A stretch of DNA of 64,000 nt from a phage: sequence record PQ478073.1, one strand, 5' to 3'. A program made the translations under genes and the position numbers. Positions 1-64,000 of the stretch are shown here, piece after piece (positions within the stretch are counted from its first letter, which is position 1; each line of letters opens with the position of its first letter). The notes under the pieces were generated by a model. The model made no database searches and had not been told where the DNA came from. It worked only from the letters and a program-made list of their open reading frames with translations.

Positions 1-132
1 TCAGAATGGGTAGTAACTAAATCTATCGAAGCAATCTATAAGGATATCGAATCCCTTTTCAACAAGAAAAGTAAGATTGAATCTGATTCATATAACAAAC
101 GTAAAGAGTTATCTACTGCACTTGGTATCTAA
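1..132 (+). CDS. 3' end of an upstream gene (partial), hypothetical
   Basis: Frame 1 open from window start to TAA at 130-132. Confidence 0.3.
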   Translation, partial: SEWVVTKSIEAIYKDIESLFNKKSKIESDSYNKRKELSTALGI

Positions 133-206
133 AAGTATTTGAGATAACAAATAATATGGAGTACAATGTGCTCCTAATTTAATTATCAGCTAAAAAGGAA
201 AACATT

Positions 207-467
207 ATGAAATCTATTCTCGTTGCAGTTAACCTGGTTGCTTCCCCATCTTTCAACTTCAAACAAGTTGTTGCTGATAATCTGAAGAAGATCTGTCCAA
301 ACGCTGAATTAACTTTCTGTGTGTTTGATTCAGAAAAAGTAACTAAAGTTGATCTAAACTATCTTTTGAACGAAGTAAAAAGCGTTTCTGGTGAAAGTAA
401 CTTAAAAGTTCTTCATGATATTGCAGAAGATTATGATGACACTCTAGTAATTTCGGAGAAATTCTAA
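207..467 (+). CDS. hypothetical protein (86 aa)
   Basis: ORF track; AAGGA RBS upstream of ATG. Confidence 0.5.
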   Translation: MKSILVAVNLVASPSFNFKQVVADNLKKICPNAELTFCVFDSEKVTKVDLNYLLNEVKSVSGESNLKVLHDIAEDYDDTLVISEKF

Positions 468-472
468 ATCAA

Positions 473-892
473 ATGATTACATTCATTCAGTACTTAATCA
501 TTAAATTTTTTGGCTATCATACGATTGAAGGCAAAGCTACACTCGCACATAAAATCTTTGTAGCATTATGTACGGGTGATTATGACGTATTGAATAAGTA
601 CTGTAAATCTAAAGCATGTATTGATATAATGGCACTTCGTATCTATGAGTGCCGTTCCAATAGATACAATTTTTACCAATACAGATTTGATGAAAAAGAA
701 TTTGATAGCATCAAAATGCTTAAGAATTTATGTAACAATAAAAAGAATATGCATATATCAGAATTTGTTGCTTTGTATTTTTATTTAAAAAGTTCATTGT
801 ATATGAACACAATGCAAAGATTCGATACTAGAATTAATGTATTCACCGATAAAGAATTTTATATATACGATAAATTCTTAGATAAGGTTTAA
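473..892 (+). CDS. hypothetical protein (139 aa)
   Basis: ORF track; tightly packed after previous gene. Confidence 0.45.
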   Translation: MITFIQYLIIKFFGYHTIEGKATLAHKIFVALCTGDYDVLNKYCKSKACIDIMALRIYECRSNRYNFYQYRFDEKEFDSIKMLKNLCNNKKNMHISEFVALYFYLKSSLYMNTMQRFDTRINVFTDKEFYIYDKFLDKV

Positions 893-893
893 T

Positions 894-1391
894 ATGACAA
901 CTGTTTATATTGATAAACGATTAAATTTATTGATTACCGATTCTAGAGTTACGTCAACTATACCACGAAACTTATTTGGTTTTTTCCCACTAAGACCAAA
1001 ATATCAATATGGAGTTGTTAATCAAAAAACTTTATATGTACATGACCGTTTATTCAGTGCTAGTGGGGTAGTAAGTGAAATTGATAAAGTACTGGATTGG
1101 TTAATTAATAAAGTACCAGTTATACCTGACAGAAAGTTAAGTTGCCATTGTGTGCTTCTTTCTAAAGATTATGTTATTCATATGATTTTAACTAAAGGAA
1201 AGTTTATTAAAAAACTTGAATATCTACATGAAGACTACACTTTCTTTATGGGAAGTGGTGGAGAATACATGCTAGATGCTGCTATTCATGAAGAACATAC
1301 AACTTTATATGATAAAGTGTTTAGTACTTTCATGGATGTGCACAACCATGATTGCTTCACAGATGATAATATTAATGTATATCGATTTTGA
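894..1391 (+). CDS. hypothetical protein (165 aa)
   Basis: ORF track; start 2 nt after upstream stop. Confidence 0.5.
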   Translation: MTTVYIDKRLNLLITDSRVTSTIPRNLFGFFPLRPKYQYGVVNQKTLYVHDRLFSASGVVSEIDKVLDWLINKVPVIPDRKLSCHCVLLSKDYVIHMILTKGKFIKKLEYLHEDYTFFMGSGGEYMLDAAIHEEHTTLYDKVFSTFMDVHNHDCFTDDNINVYRF

Positions 1392-1412
1392 TTTCGTCAT
1401 TAGGAGATGTAA

Positions 1413-2378
1413 GTGAAAAAGCTTGATTTAAATACAATTGCCGAAGAAGTTCTGGATGAATGTTTTGCTAATGAAGAAGTCAACACACTAGAAGCCTTAG
1501 ATTTCGTTGAAGATAAAGATGATAATGAAGGTAAAGTACAAAGCAGTTTCAAATATAATATTACACTTAAGCGACCACCAAATGTTTCCAATGAAGATCT
1601 AATTCGTGATATTCAAGCTGGTATCAATGTAAAGAAAAACACTGAACTGTTAGTTCGTTACAATTATGGACTGATTATTGATGTAGCAAGTAAATGTACA
1701 TGTTATATCCCATTTGAAGATAAGATTTCATATGGTGTTGAGGGGTTCATGAGAGCACTAAAAACCTTTGATCTTAATAAGAATGTTAAGTTCATTACCT
1801 ATGCTTCTTCTAGTATTTACATGACAGTCTATAACGAAAGTTCTGACGCTAACTATATGGTACACTTCCCACGTTATATGAGTGTTCATAAGATCAAAGT
1901 AAAAAGATTCTGTCAGGAATATATGCGTAAACATGGTGTTCGCCCAACTCCTGAAATAATCTCAGAGGGTACTGGGATTGAGATTCAGCATGTTAATAAT
2001 TGTTTGTTATTTCAAAGCGAATACACTTCGCTGGATGCACCATTAGACGGTGTTACAGATGGTACATTAGGTGACATTATTCATTCACCTGCTTCTGATT
2101 TTAACCTCAATGTTGATAGTATCCGTGCACCTTTACGTTATGCTATCAATGAACTGACTAACGAATTGAGTACTAAAGAACGTGAGATTATCCAGCGTGT
2201 TCATGGTCTAGGTGAATATGAACCTGAAACGCTTCGTGAGATTGCTGATAATGGTTTTGTTGATGATAATGGAAAATATGTTAAATCCCGTTCATCAATA
2301 CACCGAAAGTACAGTGAAGCTATGCAAAAGCTTAAGAAGTTAGTACTTGCAAAAGGGTACGAATACGAAGATTTCTAA
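1413..2378 (+). CDS. sigma-70 family RNA polymerase sigma factor (phage-encoded)
   Basis: GTG start with AGGAG RBS; region-2-like FITYASSSIYMTV and region-4-like LSTKEREIIQRVHGLGEYEPETLREIAD HTH; recalled from sigma-70 alignment. Confidence 0.7.
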   Translation: MKKLDLNTIAEEVLDECFANEEVNTLEALDFVEDKDDNEGKVQSSFKYNITLKRPPNVSNEDLIRDIQAGINVKKNTELLVRYNYGLIIDVASKCTCYIPFEDKISYGVEGFMRALKTFDLNKNVKFITYASSSIYMTVYNESSDANYMVHFPRYMSVHKIKVKRFCQEYMRKHGVRPTPEIISEGTGIEIQHVNNCLLFQSEYTSLDAPLDGVTDGTLGDIIHSPASDFNLNVDSIRAPLRYAINELTNELSTKEREIIQRVHGLGEYEPETLREIADNGFVDDNGKYVKSRSSIHRKYSEAMQKLKKLVLAKGYEYEDF

Positions 2379-2385
2379 AGAACAA

Positions 2386-2411
2386 GGGTTGGCTTATGCC
2401 AACCTTTTTTT
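2386..2411 (+). terminator. rho-independent terminator
   Basis: GGGTTGGC-TTAT-GCCAACC stem-loop followed by T7. Confidence 0.7.
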
Positions 2412-2449
2412 ATGGGATGAAGTAAAAGTTTGTGATATAATTATCTTGT

Positions 2450-62389: not shown

Positions 62390-62420
62390 GCTATTATATA
62401 TTCATTGAGAGATAACTCAC

Positions 62421-62435
62421 TGACCCATAGGGTGC
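62421..62435 (+). promoter_or_regulatory. palindromic operator-like motif TGACCCATAGGGTGC
   Basis: Motif family member upstream of A/T-rich -10. Confidence 0.4.
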
Positions 62436-62571
62436 GGAAGTGTATCTATTATATAAGTATTCAGTACTGAAAACTATTTTTAAAAAAGTACTTGCATTGT
62501 ACTTAGAATCAAGTATAATGTTTTACATAGAGAGGGGGAAATGGTTCTCCCTGGTAATAAGGAATAAAATC

Positions 62572-62793
62572 ATGACTACAATGACTTGCATTTACGCTTC
62601 CAATCTTCTGAATGATGCGGCCTTTAATGTTGATTCAGAATATCAATGTTATCGGGATGAAAATAAAAAAGTTTTTGTAGTTGATAATAATGGTTTCCAT
62701 ATTGAATTACAATCCGGTTTCACTGGTGTTGATGGTAAATCAGTGTGGGGCGTACAGGATGATAAAGGCACATATCATTTTAAACGTAATTAA
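62572..62793 (+). CDS. hypothetical protein (73 aa)
   Basis: ATG 62572; AAGGAA RBS. Confidence 0.55.
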   Translation: MTTMTCIYASNLLNDAAFNVDSEYQCYRDENKKVFVVDNNGFHIELQSGFTGVDGKSVWGVQDDKGTYHFKRN

Positions 62794-62877
62794 GTATTGA
62801 CAAAGTATATCAGTACTGTATAATAGTTTACATCAAGGGGAGAATAGTTCTCCCCGATACTAAAAGGAAACAAAATT

Positions 62878-63150
62878 ATGTCTAGTTACTCCGCTACTAT
62901 GATCATTAAAGATATGAACGGTAATCCTACTTCTGCTGGTGGATCATTTGGAAACATTAATTTAGATGGTCGGTTATCCATGCAATCAGCCATCGATGCA
63001 GCGAAAGAAGTTTTTAAGAATGAATGTACTGTTAGTAAGCTGGATTATATGGGATTCGCTATCGAGAAAACTAATCGTTTTGTGAACTACAAAAATCCAC
63101 TGATGATTGATACTAACCTGAAAGCTAACGAAGTGGGGTACTTATTATGA
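62878..63150 (+). CDS. hypothetical protein (90 aa)
   Basis: Cassette + AAAGGAAA RBS. Confidence 0.55.
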   Translation: MSSYSATMIIKDMNGNPTSAGGSFGNINLDGRLSMQSAIDAAKEVFKNECTVSKLDYMGFAIEKTNRFVNYKNPLMIDTNLKANEVGYLL

Positions 63151-63338
63151 CAGTAGAAGAAGTTAAAAAAGTACTGGCAGTACTACGCTATCATAATCAT
63201 TGCAAGGTGAAGAATGATCCTGATTATGTTGATTCATCCCTGGAGGAAGACACATTAAACGCAATAAGCCATATGCAAACATTAGCAAAGCGTATGACCG
63301 AAAAGAATAGACCGGACTATATCGGAAATAAAATTTAA
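63147..63338 (+). CDS. hypothetical protein (63 aa)
   Basis: ATGA overlap. Confidence 0.5.
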   Translation: MTVEEVKKVLAVLRYHNHCKVKNDPDYVDSSLEEDTLNAISHMQTLAKRMTEKNRPDYIGNKI

Positions 63339-63424
63339 AAAGTACTTGCATTGTAGTTAGATTAACGTATAATGTTTTACATAGAGCGGGGGAATAGTTC
63401 TCCCGCCAGTCCAGGAGATACACC

Positions 63425-63688
63425 ATGAACACTATCGAAATCACTATCAATGCACACGTATACGACAACGTAGTACTGCAAACTACTATGACCGCTAATG
63501 ATACCAGTACTTTGCGGAATACCGTTGTAAGTGCTGTATGTGCTGCAATCGGTGATGTAGCCCTGGAAAATGCAGAACACATCAACAACGGTTTCACTAT
63601 GTGCAAACGTGATAACGCAAAACATATCATCTTAGAAGGTTACGGCGGTGTAGAATATAATCTTTATATGAAAAAAGTACTTGCATAA
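63425..63688 (+). CDS. hypothetical protein (87 aa)
   Basis: Cassette + CAGGAGA RBS. Confidence 0.55.
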   Translation: MNTIEITINAHVYDNVVLQTTMTANDTSTLRNTVVSAVCAAIGDVALENAEHINNGFTMCKRDNAKHIILEGYGGVEYNLYMKKVLA

Positions 63689-63755
63689 TAACTAAAACAA
63701 AGTATAATGTTTTGCATAGGGGGAGATATCCTCCCCCACTAAAAGGAGTAATAAA

Positions 63756-63980
63756 ATGGCTAACTTTGATGAACTGATGCGGGAAGTAGCTAACCTGGCA
63801 GAAGAGAAGAAATCATTCGATTCTATCTATAACACCGCTCACCGTGATTCAGTACTGGCATGTACTCAGGATCAAAAAGATGAACTAATCGCCACATATC
63901 ATGAAGCATGGAAGTACTACCGCCAATGGGAGAAAGAAGAAAGCGAGTCTACCATCAACGGCATCAATAATCTAATCTAA
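63756..63980 (+). CDS. hypothetical protein (74 aa)
   Basis: Cassette + AAGGAG RBS; N-terminus MANFDEL. Confidence 0.55.
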   Translation: MANFDELMREVANLAEEKKSFDSIYNTAHRDSVLACTQDQKDELIATYHEAWKYYRQWEKEESESTINGINNLI

Positions 63981-64000
63981 AAGTTTTATTTCAGTACTAT

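Follow-up and report, generated by a model that had tools for sequence, protein, structure and literature searches.

The closest described counterpart of the element treated here, the palindrome AGTACT as it occurs in a 64,000-bp stretch of phage DNA (sequence record PQ478073.1; the whole stretch is referred to below as the window), is HIP1 (GCGATCGC) of cyanobacteria, which is 15-300x over-represented, whose sites are conserved, for which selection has been inferred and whose function is unknown (PMC5861425). The HIP1 core is recognised by two orphan methyltransferases (PMC4390886). Like AGTACT, HIP1 is a hyper-abundant short palindrome that lies both within and between genes, is found clade-wide and is conserved beyond background. 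HIP1, however, is an 8-mer of cellular chromosomes with cognate methyltransferases, whereas AGTACT is a 6-mer of virus genomes for which no matching methyltransferase is evident. HIP1 shows a 10-90 kb periodicity, whereas the short-range spacing of AGTACT is Poisson-like, and AGTACT, unlike HIP1, occupies fixed promoter positions and gives way in conserved zones to one-sided variants.

Other iterated signals share part of this pattern. The uptake sequences of Haemophilus (uptake signal sequence, USS) and Neisseria (DNA uptake sequence, DUS) are over-represented, occur in all reading frames, shift peptide composition and form terminators as inverted pairs, and AGTACT resembles them in its paired copies within terminator stems and in the skewed dipeptides of the encoded proteins. 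They are, however, asymmetric 9-12-mers tied to biased uptake in competent bacteria, whereas the phage has no uptake step, AGTACT is palindromic and its near-miss words are not depleted. Chi (GCTGGTGG) is likewise a short cis-acting signal at high density, one that controls RecBCD travelling on DNA, but it is asymmetric and orientation-dependent, AGTACT is ~30x more frequent, and the two motifs are independent. At the level of protein function, TF1 of SPO1 and p6 of phi29 are abundant phage proteins that favour phage DNA and repress or organise early promoters; they provide a functional model for a binder, although TF1 reads hydroxymethyluracil DNA and p6 bendability, and neither reads an iterated hexamer. 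Finally, primases of the DnaG type, known from E. coli, T4 and T7, read a trinucleotide with a cryptic base at its 3' end and synthesise primers of 11, 5 and 4 nt, respectively; the T7 enzyme requires expanded 5-nt sites, and the sites of T7 (5'-GGGTC/TGGTC/GTGTC-3') and T4 (5'-GTT/GCT-3') are strand-specific and are read on single-stranded DNA (PMC2910064).

The window is 97-99% identical to the Asteriusvirus jumbo coliphages 121Q, PBECO4, slurp01, JP4 and ELP-22, whose genomes are ~350 kb long with 34-35% G+C. We confirm that AGTACT is enriched in this DNA, to an extreme degree and at the level of the DNA itself. Full-text literature searches returned no paper that describes this enrichment in these phages, or the associated features outside the window, and it is apparently unreported. 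AGTACT is, in our judgement, likely to act in cis as a selected DNA signal to which a phage factor responds.

Results

AGTACT is over-represented beyond composition and codon usage

The complete 121Q genome (NC_025447.1, 348.5 kb), assembled from seven pieces, served as the whole-genome reference, and genes were called by a trained hexamer model, which in 121Q called 596 genes against the 608 annotated. In the window AGTACT occurs 281 times, against a mean of 22.1 (standard deviation 4.6, maximum 36) in 100 dinucleotide-preserving shuffles, which bears out an earlier note on this DNA that had placed the palindrome far above its composition expectation. It is the top hexamer of the window by observed/expected ratio (12.9x), with its own extensions CAGTAC and GTACTG next in rank. 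The same note had put about 12 copies in 46,861-47,760, and exactly 12 were counted there, with ~0.3 expected. The sites divide into 185 within genes (3.5/kb), 94 in noncoding DNA (8.2/kb) and 2 on gene edges; first-order Markov expectations are 16.5 for coding and 4.9 for noncoding sequence. AGTACT is again the top hexamer in 121Q, with 903 copies (9x the first-order and 5x the second-order Markov expectation), and the commonest 8-mers of that genome all include it. A composition artefact fails against both the dinucleotide shuffles and first- to fourth-order Markov expectations.

Coding copies had been said to lie in several frames, and all three are used, in the proportions 85/40/60 in the window and 376/143/239 in 121Q. 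A synonymous-codon shuffle that preserves every protein and the codon usage of each gene yields 58.5 +/- 6.3 coding copies in the window against the 185 observed, and so explains ~30% of them, and 219 +/- 10 against 758 in 121Q; a codon-usage artefact is ruled out in both, and the odds ratio does not approach 1 after codon and dinucleotide correction. The effect is visible in the choice of codon pairs, as 54% of Ser-Thr pairs are encoded AGT-ACT, against 15% expected from codon usage, and 6% of Thr-Ser pairs are encoded ACT-AGT. It extends to the proteins themselves, with dipeptide observed/expected ratios of 1.44 for Ser-Thr vs 0.94 for Thr-Ser, 1.37 for Val-Leu vs 0.97 for Leu-Val and 1.45 for Gln-Tyr vs 1.06 for Tyr-Gln. 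The pressure is strong enough to distort both codon-pair and dipeptide use. Sites are distributed uniformly along gene length, and minus-strand genes carry 3.2 sites/kb, matching plus-strand genes, so that the motif is independent of the transcribed strand.

Four 121Q genes of 1.05-1.46 kb lack AGTACT altogether (5,379-6,431; 335,645-336,820; 110,900-112,363; 275,727-277,151). Two of these encode the gp32-like single-stranded DNA (ssDNA)-binding protein and the major capsid protein, are unusually rich in G+C (0.42-0.43) and presumably have high expression; the remaining two, of the endonuclease/HNH kind, are presumably mobile.

The sequence around the sites is biased weakly and symmetrically. 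At -1 the preferred base is C (44%) and the disfavoured one G (10%), at +6 the preferred base is G (46%) and the disfavoured one C (6%), and a faint T-rich/A-rich extension follows further out, with an information content of at most 0.35 bit at -1/+6 and ~0 farther out. A dispersed repeat, or an element resembling repetitive extragenic palindromes (REP) or miniature inverted-repeat transposable elements (MITE), is ruled out by these nearly information-free flanks, and longer shared sequence around the sites is limited to promoter cassettes and one 53-bp tandem repeat. Inter-site spacing is Poisson-like (coefficient of variation 0.97-1.18); even spacing, of the kind of one site per given length, is not seen, and the largest gaps are accounted for by special zones described below. 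The one-sided variants AGTACA (49 copies) and TGTACT (53) are strand-symmetric in the window. A polar signal of the Chi type was rejected, AGTACT being palindromic and polarity being confined to the two special zones, both outside the window.

The same core is found in the SlmA site GTGAGTACTCAC, the palindromic operator of a dimeric E. coli host protein. SlmA sites were considered and rejected: the 12-bp palindrome GTGAGTACTCAC (GTnAGnnCTnAC) is not matched, the pattern GTNAGTACTNAC has no match in the window and two in 121Q, and the bases disfavoured at -1 and +6 of the phage sites are the flanks that SlmA sites carry. That the enrichment is a by-product of composition, codon usage, repeats or SlmA sites is hardly credible. 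Some copies do lie in repeated promoter cassettes and in the tandem repeat, and the AGTACT core is indeed common to the SlmA site, but the expectations from dinucleotide shuffles, from Markov models and from synonymous shuffles are all too low by 3- to 13-fold, and neither the flanks nor the SlmA pattern count fits such an origin.

Sites are conserved above their flanks

Conservation was assessed with 121Q as reference against four relatives at 80-94% identity, taking in-frame hexamers 12-30 bp from each site as background. Aligned sites are intact in 428 of 499 cases (85.8%), against 2,522 of 3,658 flanking hexamers (68.9%; Fisher p = 3e-16). For coding sites, 49 of 63 (78%) are kept in phage A4 against a background of 0.49 (p = 3e-6), and 29 of 44 (66%) in fEgEco12 against 0.365 (p = 7e-5); noncoding sites are kept in A4 at 87% against 60%. 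An earlier window-side test with a cruder gene set had given a weak signal at coding sites and is superseded by this larger, flank-matched test. Some coding sites occupy the identical codon-alignment column in other genera; in RaK2 this applies to 8 of 35 where 0.18 are expected, a comparison confounded by conserved dipeptides. AGTACT appears to be maintained by selection, since its sites outlast their flanks, dipeptides are distorted and the trait is clade-wide.

A neutral molecular drive offers a different account, in which biased repair or gene conversion turns near-cognate words into AGTACT, as in very short patch (VSP) repair or the uptake-sequence drive of Haemophilus and Neisseria. Such a drive would leave sites wherever they are tolerated, terminator stems included, and would distort the proteome as uptake sequences do. 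Gains and losses of sites are roughly equal between close relatives, the zero copies in the two endonuclease, the capsid and the gp32-like genes fit a slow accumulation opposed by constraint, and T4-type phages recombine intensely, all of which would suit it. We nevertheless consider it improbable. One-mismatch words are not drained, their observed/expected ratios being 1.2-2.1 under a first-order Markov model (AGTATT/AATACT 1.23, and at least 1.16 for all nine classes but AGGACT/AGTCCT), which argues against a repair activity that produces AGTACT, and VSP-type conversion of near-cognate words was rejected on this ground. Furthermore, promoter positions are fixed across genera, and the sharp zones that exclude the palindrome while enriching its one-sided variants are hard to derive from a genome-wide bias. 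Finally, sites are conserved above their flanks, a property that for HIP1 was read as selection and not as biased repair (PMC5861425).

The enrichment is clade-wide and runs against palindrome avoidance

AGTACT is also the top hexamer, at 14-19x, in RaK2 (Klebsiella), GAP32 (Cronobacter), BF (Serratia) and Munch (Salmonella), which were examined as 33-41-kb samples and whose proteins are just ~37-47% identical to those of the window. Judged from these samples, its abundance is common to at least five genera of enterobacterial RaK2/121Q-type jumbo phages. A 50-kb sample of the distant relative XacN1 does not have it among its over-represented hexamers, and no enrichment is seen in the distant relative Atu_ph07 (3 vs 6.7 expected), in T4 (12 vs 16.7 expected) or in a 50-kb sample of E. 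coli K-12 (3 copies, ~0.06/kb).

The earlier note had held that phages usually deplete restriction-site palindromes and that AGTACT runs the opposite way, and this holds within 121Q itself: 24 of the 64 palindromic hexamers are missing from its 348.5 kb, with up to 47 expected. Among them are CCATGG (47 expected), TGGCCA (43), GCATGC (39), CTGCAG (36), GGTACC (32) and GGATCC (30), and the absent words include the sister words GGTACC and CGTACG. For a phage whose DNA is not hypermodified, this is an extreme degree of restriction-site avoidance. The tetramer GATC stands at an observed/expected ratio of 0.51. AGTACT is itself a known restriction target (ScaI/Eco255I), and the depletion of such targets is not seen for it, as it is enriched 9-19x. 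Its enrichment in spite of palindrome avoidance makes a positive function the right inference. Of the functions that had been suggested (binding, modification or nicking), this general part stands, backed by selection and by the contrast with avoided palindromes, and modification finds no support.

If a phage methyltransferase marked AGTACT, either to tell the strands apart or to protect the site, in the manner of Dam at GATC, it would make sense that AGTACT is not avoided while 24 palindromes are eliminated, as its sites must be harmless or protected; the phage does encode two DNA methyltransferases, and for HIP1 a link to orphan methyltransferases is known (PMC4390886). Apart from a C5 methyltransferase (121Q gene 91) and one of the PF05869 Dam type (gene 417), no DNA-modifying enzyme was found. 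To our knowledge, the PF05869 enzymes characterised to date are GATC-specific or non-specific. The C5 methyltransferase was rejected as the reader, as its homologues carry no specificity names and bisulfite data for RaK2 indicate CpG: the RaK2 paper describes CpG-type m5C (bisulfite sequencing) and resistance to Dam/Dcm/CpG-type restriction and does not report AGTACT, which contains no CpG. The literature searched held no account of a modification at AGTACT. Protection would, moreover, account for tolerance of the sites and not for their 9-19x enrichment, and we rate modification as the very improbable last of the functional alternatives. The DNA of fEgEco12 was cut as predicted by ten enzymes (PMC13070987).

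AGTACT occupies fixed promoter positions, terminator stems and the genome end

The left genome end of fEgEco12 was defined by PhageTerm and restriction digests (PMC13070987), and the window aligns with it from 46,996 onward at 96.8% identity. The window therefore consists of a unique-sequence part (1-46,995), with genes mostly without known function and 165 AGTACT sites (3.5/kb), and the start (17 kb) of a ~21-kb direct terminal repeat (46,996-64,000, + strand), which with 116 sites (6.8/kb) is the densest zone. The terminal-repeat part carries small early-type genes with one sigma70-type promoter apiece, and nine of these promoters match the consensus at 12 of 12 positions, all nine on the + strand.

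Copies in promoters, earlier reported as cAGTACTGTATAAT, are confirmed: AGTACTGTATAAT is present 12x in the window, and the pattern TTGAC[AT]-N9-AGTACTG has 13 matches on the + strand vs two on the - strand. Two promoter classes can be distinguished. In class A, exemplified by TTGACT-N9-AGTACT-G-TATAAT at 47,361-47,388 (+), the site lies at -19..-14, adjoining the -10 region and always 9 nt past the -35 hexamer, in the form TTGACA-N9-AGTACT-G-TATAAT or ending in AGTACTGGCATAAT; further class A sites are at 4775, 8739, 19366, 51475, 52259, 56313, 56903, 58705, 59955 and 62812. In class B, exemplified by AAAGTAC-TTGCAA-N16-TATAAT at 49,162-49,194 (+), the site lies at -39..-34 and the final T of AGTACT doubles as a base of the -35 hexamer; further class B sites are at 48702, 49839, 50398, 51200, 53860, 59549, 62487 and 63341. 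The promoter AGTACTTGCAATTAGTTTTTAGTACTGTATAAT at 51,455-51,487 (+) has both positions occupied, with site starts 20 bp, or two helical turns, apart, as have those at 52,239/52,259 and 58,412/58,432, and promoter site pairs are ~20-22 bp apart overall. The corresponding offsets of -7 and -27/-28 from the -10 hexamer are restricted to the + (gene) strand and recur in five genomes of four genera: the window, A4, GAP32, BF and Munch. One or both AGTACT positions are present at 19 of the 32 intergenic promoter-like sites of the window. Promoter copies are nonetheless a minority, about 20-25 of the 281, with 66% of copies inside genes, and just 27 of 757 coding copies in 121Q precede a -10-like hexamer; that all copies are promoter elements is ruled out by the two thirds that are distributed uniformly within genes.

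The hairpin copies previously described, CCAGTACT...AGTACTGG, are present at 27,807, 34,545, 33,292, 35,808 and 32,079. The hairpin GCCAGTACT-GA-AGTACTGGC at 34,544-34,563 (-) is of terminator type, being followed by a T-run on the - strand, and lies between RCC1-like paralogues; similar terminator hairpins start at 27,807, 32,079, 33,292 and 35,808. The array to which these paralogues belong spans 28,484-41,790 (-) and holds 11 RCC1-like genes with 42 AGTACT sites (3.2/kb). Each gene encodes a beta-propeller of ~370-400 amino acids and terminates in an AGTACT-bearing hairpin.

The hotspot at 46,861-47,760, with 12 sites in 900 bp, is gene-free and spans the physical genome end. Its sites, which occur chiefly as TCAGTACTGA, are at 46904, 46948, 46969, 47094, 47190, 47336, 47376, 47527, 47553, 47620, 47676 and 47716, and at 47,526-47,559 two copies of CAGTACTG form a hairpin with a 14-bp stem. 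The 53-bp tandem repeat lies nearby at 48,536-48,675 (+), in 2.6 copies at 95% identity; its unit contains CAGTACTG and TAGTACTA, giving 5 AGTACT sites in total.

Several other repeats surround this end. The 1.7 kb after 46,996 are gene-free and repeat-rich, with 16/24/48-bp repeats of the GGCTAAACGGCTAGA type at 47,811-47,910, and 10-bp GTAATCATAA repeats lie at 46,817-46,904, immediately left of the genome end; these may be packaging, end-protection or origin elements. Chi is itself frequent, with 12 copies in the window vs 0.5 expected (2610, 18874, 31069, 41567(-), 47581(-), 47593, 53474, 57125, 58586, 59505, 61530 and 62935), 10 of the 12 on the + strand. In 121Q there are 29 copies vs ~2.3 expected; the + strand has 18 and the - strand 11, where each should have ~1.1. 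A pair of Chi copies in inverted orientation, CCACCAGCttgtGCTGGTGG, is found 590 bp inward of the physical genome end, and the Chi pattern suggests that the linear ends are shielded from RecBCD.

Outside the window the palindrome is split into one-sided forms

In 121Q, some 10 kb past the right end of the window, a block of 7,511 bp (161,803-169,314) has zero ACT on its + strand where ~145 are expected, while AGT is normal there; the next largest ACT-free gap in this genome is 459 bp. The block holds ~19 small co-oriented genes, and the ban on ACT applies to their sense strand in all three frames; ACT makes up 1% of Thr codons vs 47% elsewhere. Within it AGTACT is absent and AGTACA is present in 41 copies (5.4/kb), again in all three frames, while AGTACC and AGTACG are absent. 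The block proteins match only PHROGs of unknown function and no Pfam family, and their homologues are confined to Asteriusvirus. The block is conserved as 8,212 bp in slurp01 (sample positions 6160-14372) and 8,293 bp in fEgEco12 (sample positions 5931-14224), where identity is ~81%. Munch has a ~2-kb ACT-free version (sample positions 25611-27566), and no ACT-free stretch is seen in the GAP32, BF and RaK2 samples.

A mirror zone of ~3.5 kb lies ~2 kb to the left of the block, at the inner edge of the terminal repeat. Here AGTAC occurs 0-1 times vs 13-15 expected, and nearly every GTAC is part of TGTACT (6-8 copies), in all four genomes examined (121Q 155,600-159,500; sample positions 1-3300 in slurp01, 1-3300 in fEgEco12 and 25600-29000 in A4). 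Beyond these special zones, the ACT/AGT skew along 121Q shows no systematic trend of replication polarity. The split of the palindrome into opposite one-sided forms in adjacent zones means that something reads, or must be kept from reading, a single strand, and the arrangement of these words suggests a signal that is readable one strand at a time.

An enzyme that moves along phage DNA and reads AGTACT single-stranded, a primase or a site-specific nickase acting on the ACT-bearing strand, would meet this observation most directly, and we regard it as unlikely overall but as the first of the alternatives to be considered. In its most concrete version, the T4-type primase (121Q gene 19), together with the gp41-like helicase (gene 20), would use the template 5'-AGTAC(T)-3', with a cryptic 3' T and ACT as the essential trinucleotide, to make the primer pppGUACU. 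As AGTACT is palindromic, a single duplex site would serve forks of either direction, and the ACT-free block and the TGTACT-only zone would be places where just one strand may be primed or nicked. Five copied bases and one cryptic base fit a T4-type primer, and the genome-wide, frame-independent, Poisson-like distribution suits a requirement for site density. Furthermore, the conserved absence of ACT from the + strand with AGT normal, the replacement of AGTACT solely by AGTACA, the mirror zone in four genomes and the shorter stretch in Munch all suit it, the ACT-free block being a trinucleotide-level, single-strand pattern of the kind that a primase would impose. The early-promoter positions in four genera are not explained in this way, nor is the twofold higher density in noncoding and terminal-repeat DNA. 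ACT alone occurs every ~52 nt, and the full hexamer is not obviously needed for priming; one-sided variants are strand-symmetric outside the two zones, as the window counts attest, and the GAP32, BF and RaK2 samples lack the ACT-free stretch. We know of no precedent for strong enrichment of a primase site and of no ACT-specific primase. As for a nickase, the restriction patterns of fEgEco12 are as predicted, although native gels are blind to nicks. A broader form of the idea, in which AGTACT is the two-strand form of a polar signal (AGTAC / GTACT) that a replication or recombination enzyme reads as ssDNA, we hold to be doubtful.

The block could also be explained at the RNA level, AGUACU or ACU being the target of an endoribonuclease or RNA-binding protein that times mRNA decay and from which the block transcripts escape. 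An ACT ban on the sense strand of ~19 co-oriented genes in all frames is what an agent acting on RNA or ssDNA yields, early transcripts have the highest site density, and three-base mRNA interferases do exist, for example MazF acting on ACA. An early gene of the window at 60,905-61,156 (+) encodes an 84-amino-acid protein with a ParE-like toxin domain (PF24732, E = 3.6e-10) of the RelE/ParE fold; no obvious antitoxin is annotated alongside it, and the ParE family includes gyrase poisons too. Set against an RNA target are the perfect palindrome with its symmetric flanks, the strand symmetry of the one-sided variants outside the special zones, and the equal density in minus-strand genes. Moreover, many copies lie upstream of transcription starts or within stable hairpin stems, and ACT overall is not enriched (19/kb vs ~17 expected). 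We consider an RNA-level target quite improbable.

Other features of the window

The unique part encodes a sigma70-family factor with regions 2, 3 and 4 (1,413-2,378, +), which is phage-encoded and has no shown link to AGTACT, as well as DenV and numerous small open reading frames (ORFs); in relatives such as 121Q the homologous stretch carries an annotated protein kinase. A second tandem paralogue array, of ~20 ORFs of 60-70 amino acids, occupies 41,894-46,702 (+). A recurrent element without AGTACT, AAAGGG-TTGACT-ncGGTCAGnCCCTTT-GCTAT[T/A]AT, places a -35 hexamer within a terminator-like hairpin stem and a -10 hexamer at promoter distance, and looks like a fused terminator and promoter; it is found at 10,5xx, 21,1xx, 22,4xx, 24,1xx, 55,724-55,751, 59,417-59,444 and 62,362-62,389. 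Rfam and tRNA scans of the window gave no matches.

Discussion

We propose a model for AGTACT that most reasonably fits these observations. AGTACT is present wherever it is tolerated, in every frame, in genes of both orientations, in promoter spacers, at the -35 edge, in terminator stems and in the gene-free genome end. It is HIP1-like because it is over-represented after correction for composition, lies within and between ORFs in all frames and is conserved above background. Our best explanation overall, put forward tentatively, is that of a positively selected, highly iterated palindrome read by a clade-specific factor. In this model AGTACT would be recognised by a protein that is specific to the clade, probably encoded by the phage, and active on phage DNA. 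The version in which this factor is a binder with AGTACT as its operator is possible, and we advance it with more reserve. A symmetric, presumably dimeric, duplex-binding protein would load throughout the phage genome, and the copies at -19..-14 and -39..-34 of the early sigma70-type promoters within the terminal repeat would let it control early transcription too. Site density is ~2.6-4.4/kb in the phage vs ~0.06/kb in the E. coli sample, so that such a protein would meet phage DNA ~40-70x oftener than host DNA, and the hexamer could serve as a sequence-encoded mark of 'self'.

Several points weigh against this model. A binder with ~900 sites per genome copy must be very abundant, and when 123 proteins of the window were scanned against Pfam, no helix-turn-helix protein or other sequence-specific DNA binder turned up; nor is an AGTACT-specific methyltransferase evident. 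The fixed promoter positions could stem partly from common descent of the cassettes and from preferred promoter bases. The TGTACT-only and AGTACA-only zones are not explained by a symmetric duplex binder, and all of our functional claims are drawn from sequence statistics. With these points taken into account we still rank the duplex binder first, followed by the strand-reading enzyme, neutral repair drive, an RNA-level target and a modification site.

As a selected signal, AGTACT would be a second, independent hyper-abundant palindrome after HIP1, whose function has been obscure for 30 years, and it would be one that occurs in a tractable lytic coliphage. What makes it testable is that so short a word, which the host lacks, is under measurable selection and built into early promoters, and that its one-strand halves are split apart nearby. 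The identity of its reader would show either how unmodified jumbo-phage DNA is distinguished from that of the host or how the replication and transcription of the phage are programmed. AGTACT could furthermore be used as a clade signature in metagenomes, and it matters for the engineering or recoding of therapeutic jumbo phages. The ACT-free block is a stranger observation in addition. Were the polar signal to prove true, these phages would be the first viruses known to have reshaped genome and proteome around the template specificity of an enzyme, with a replication programme encoded in the sequence and palindromes placed wherever either strand is usable.

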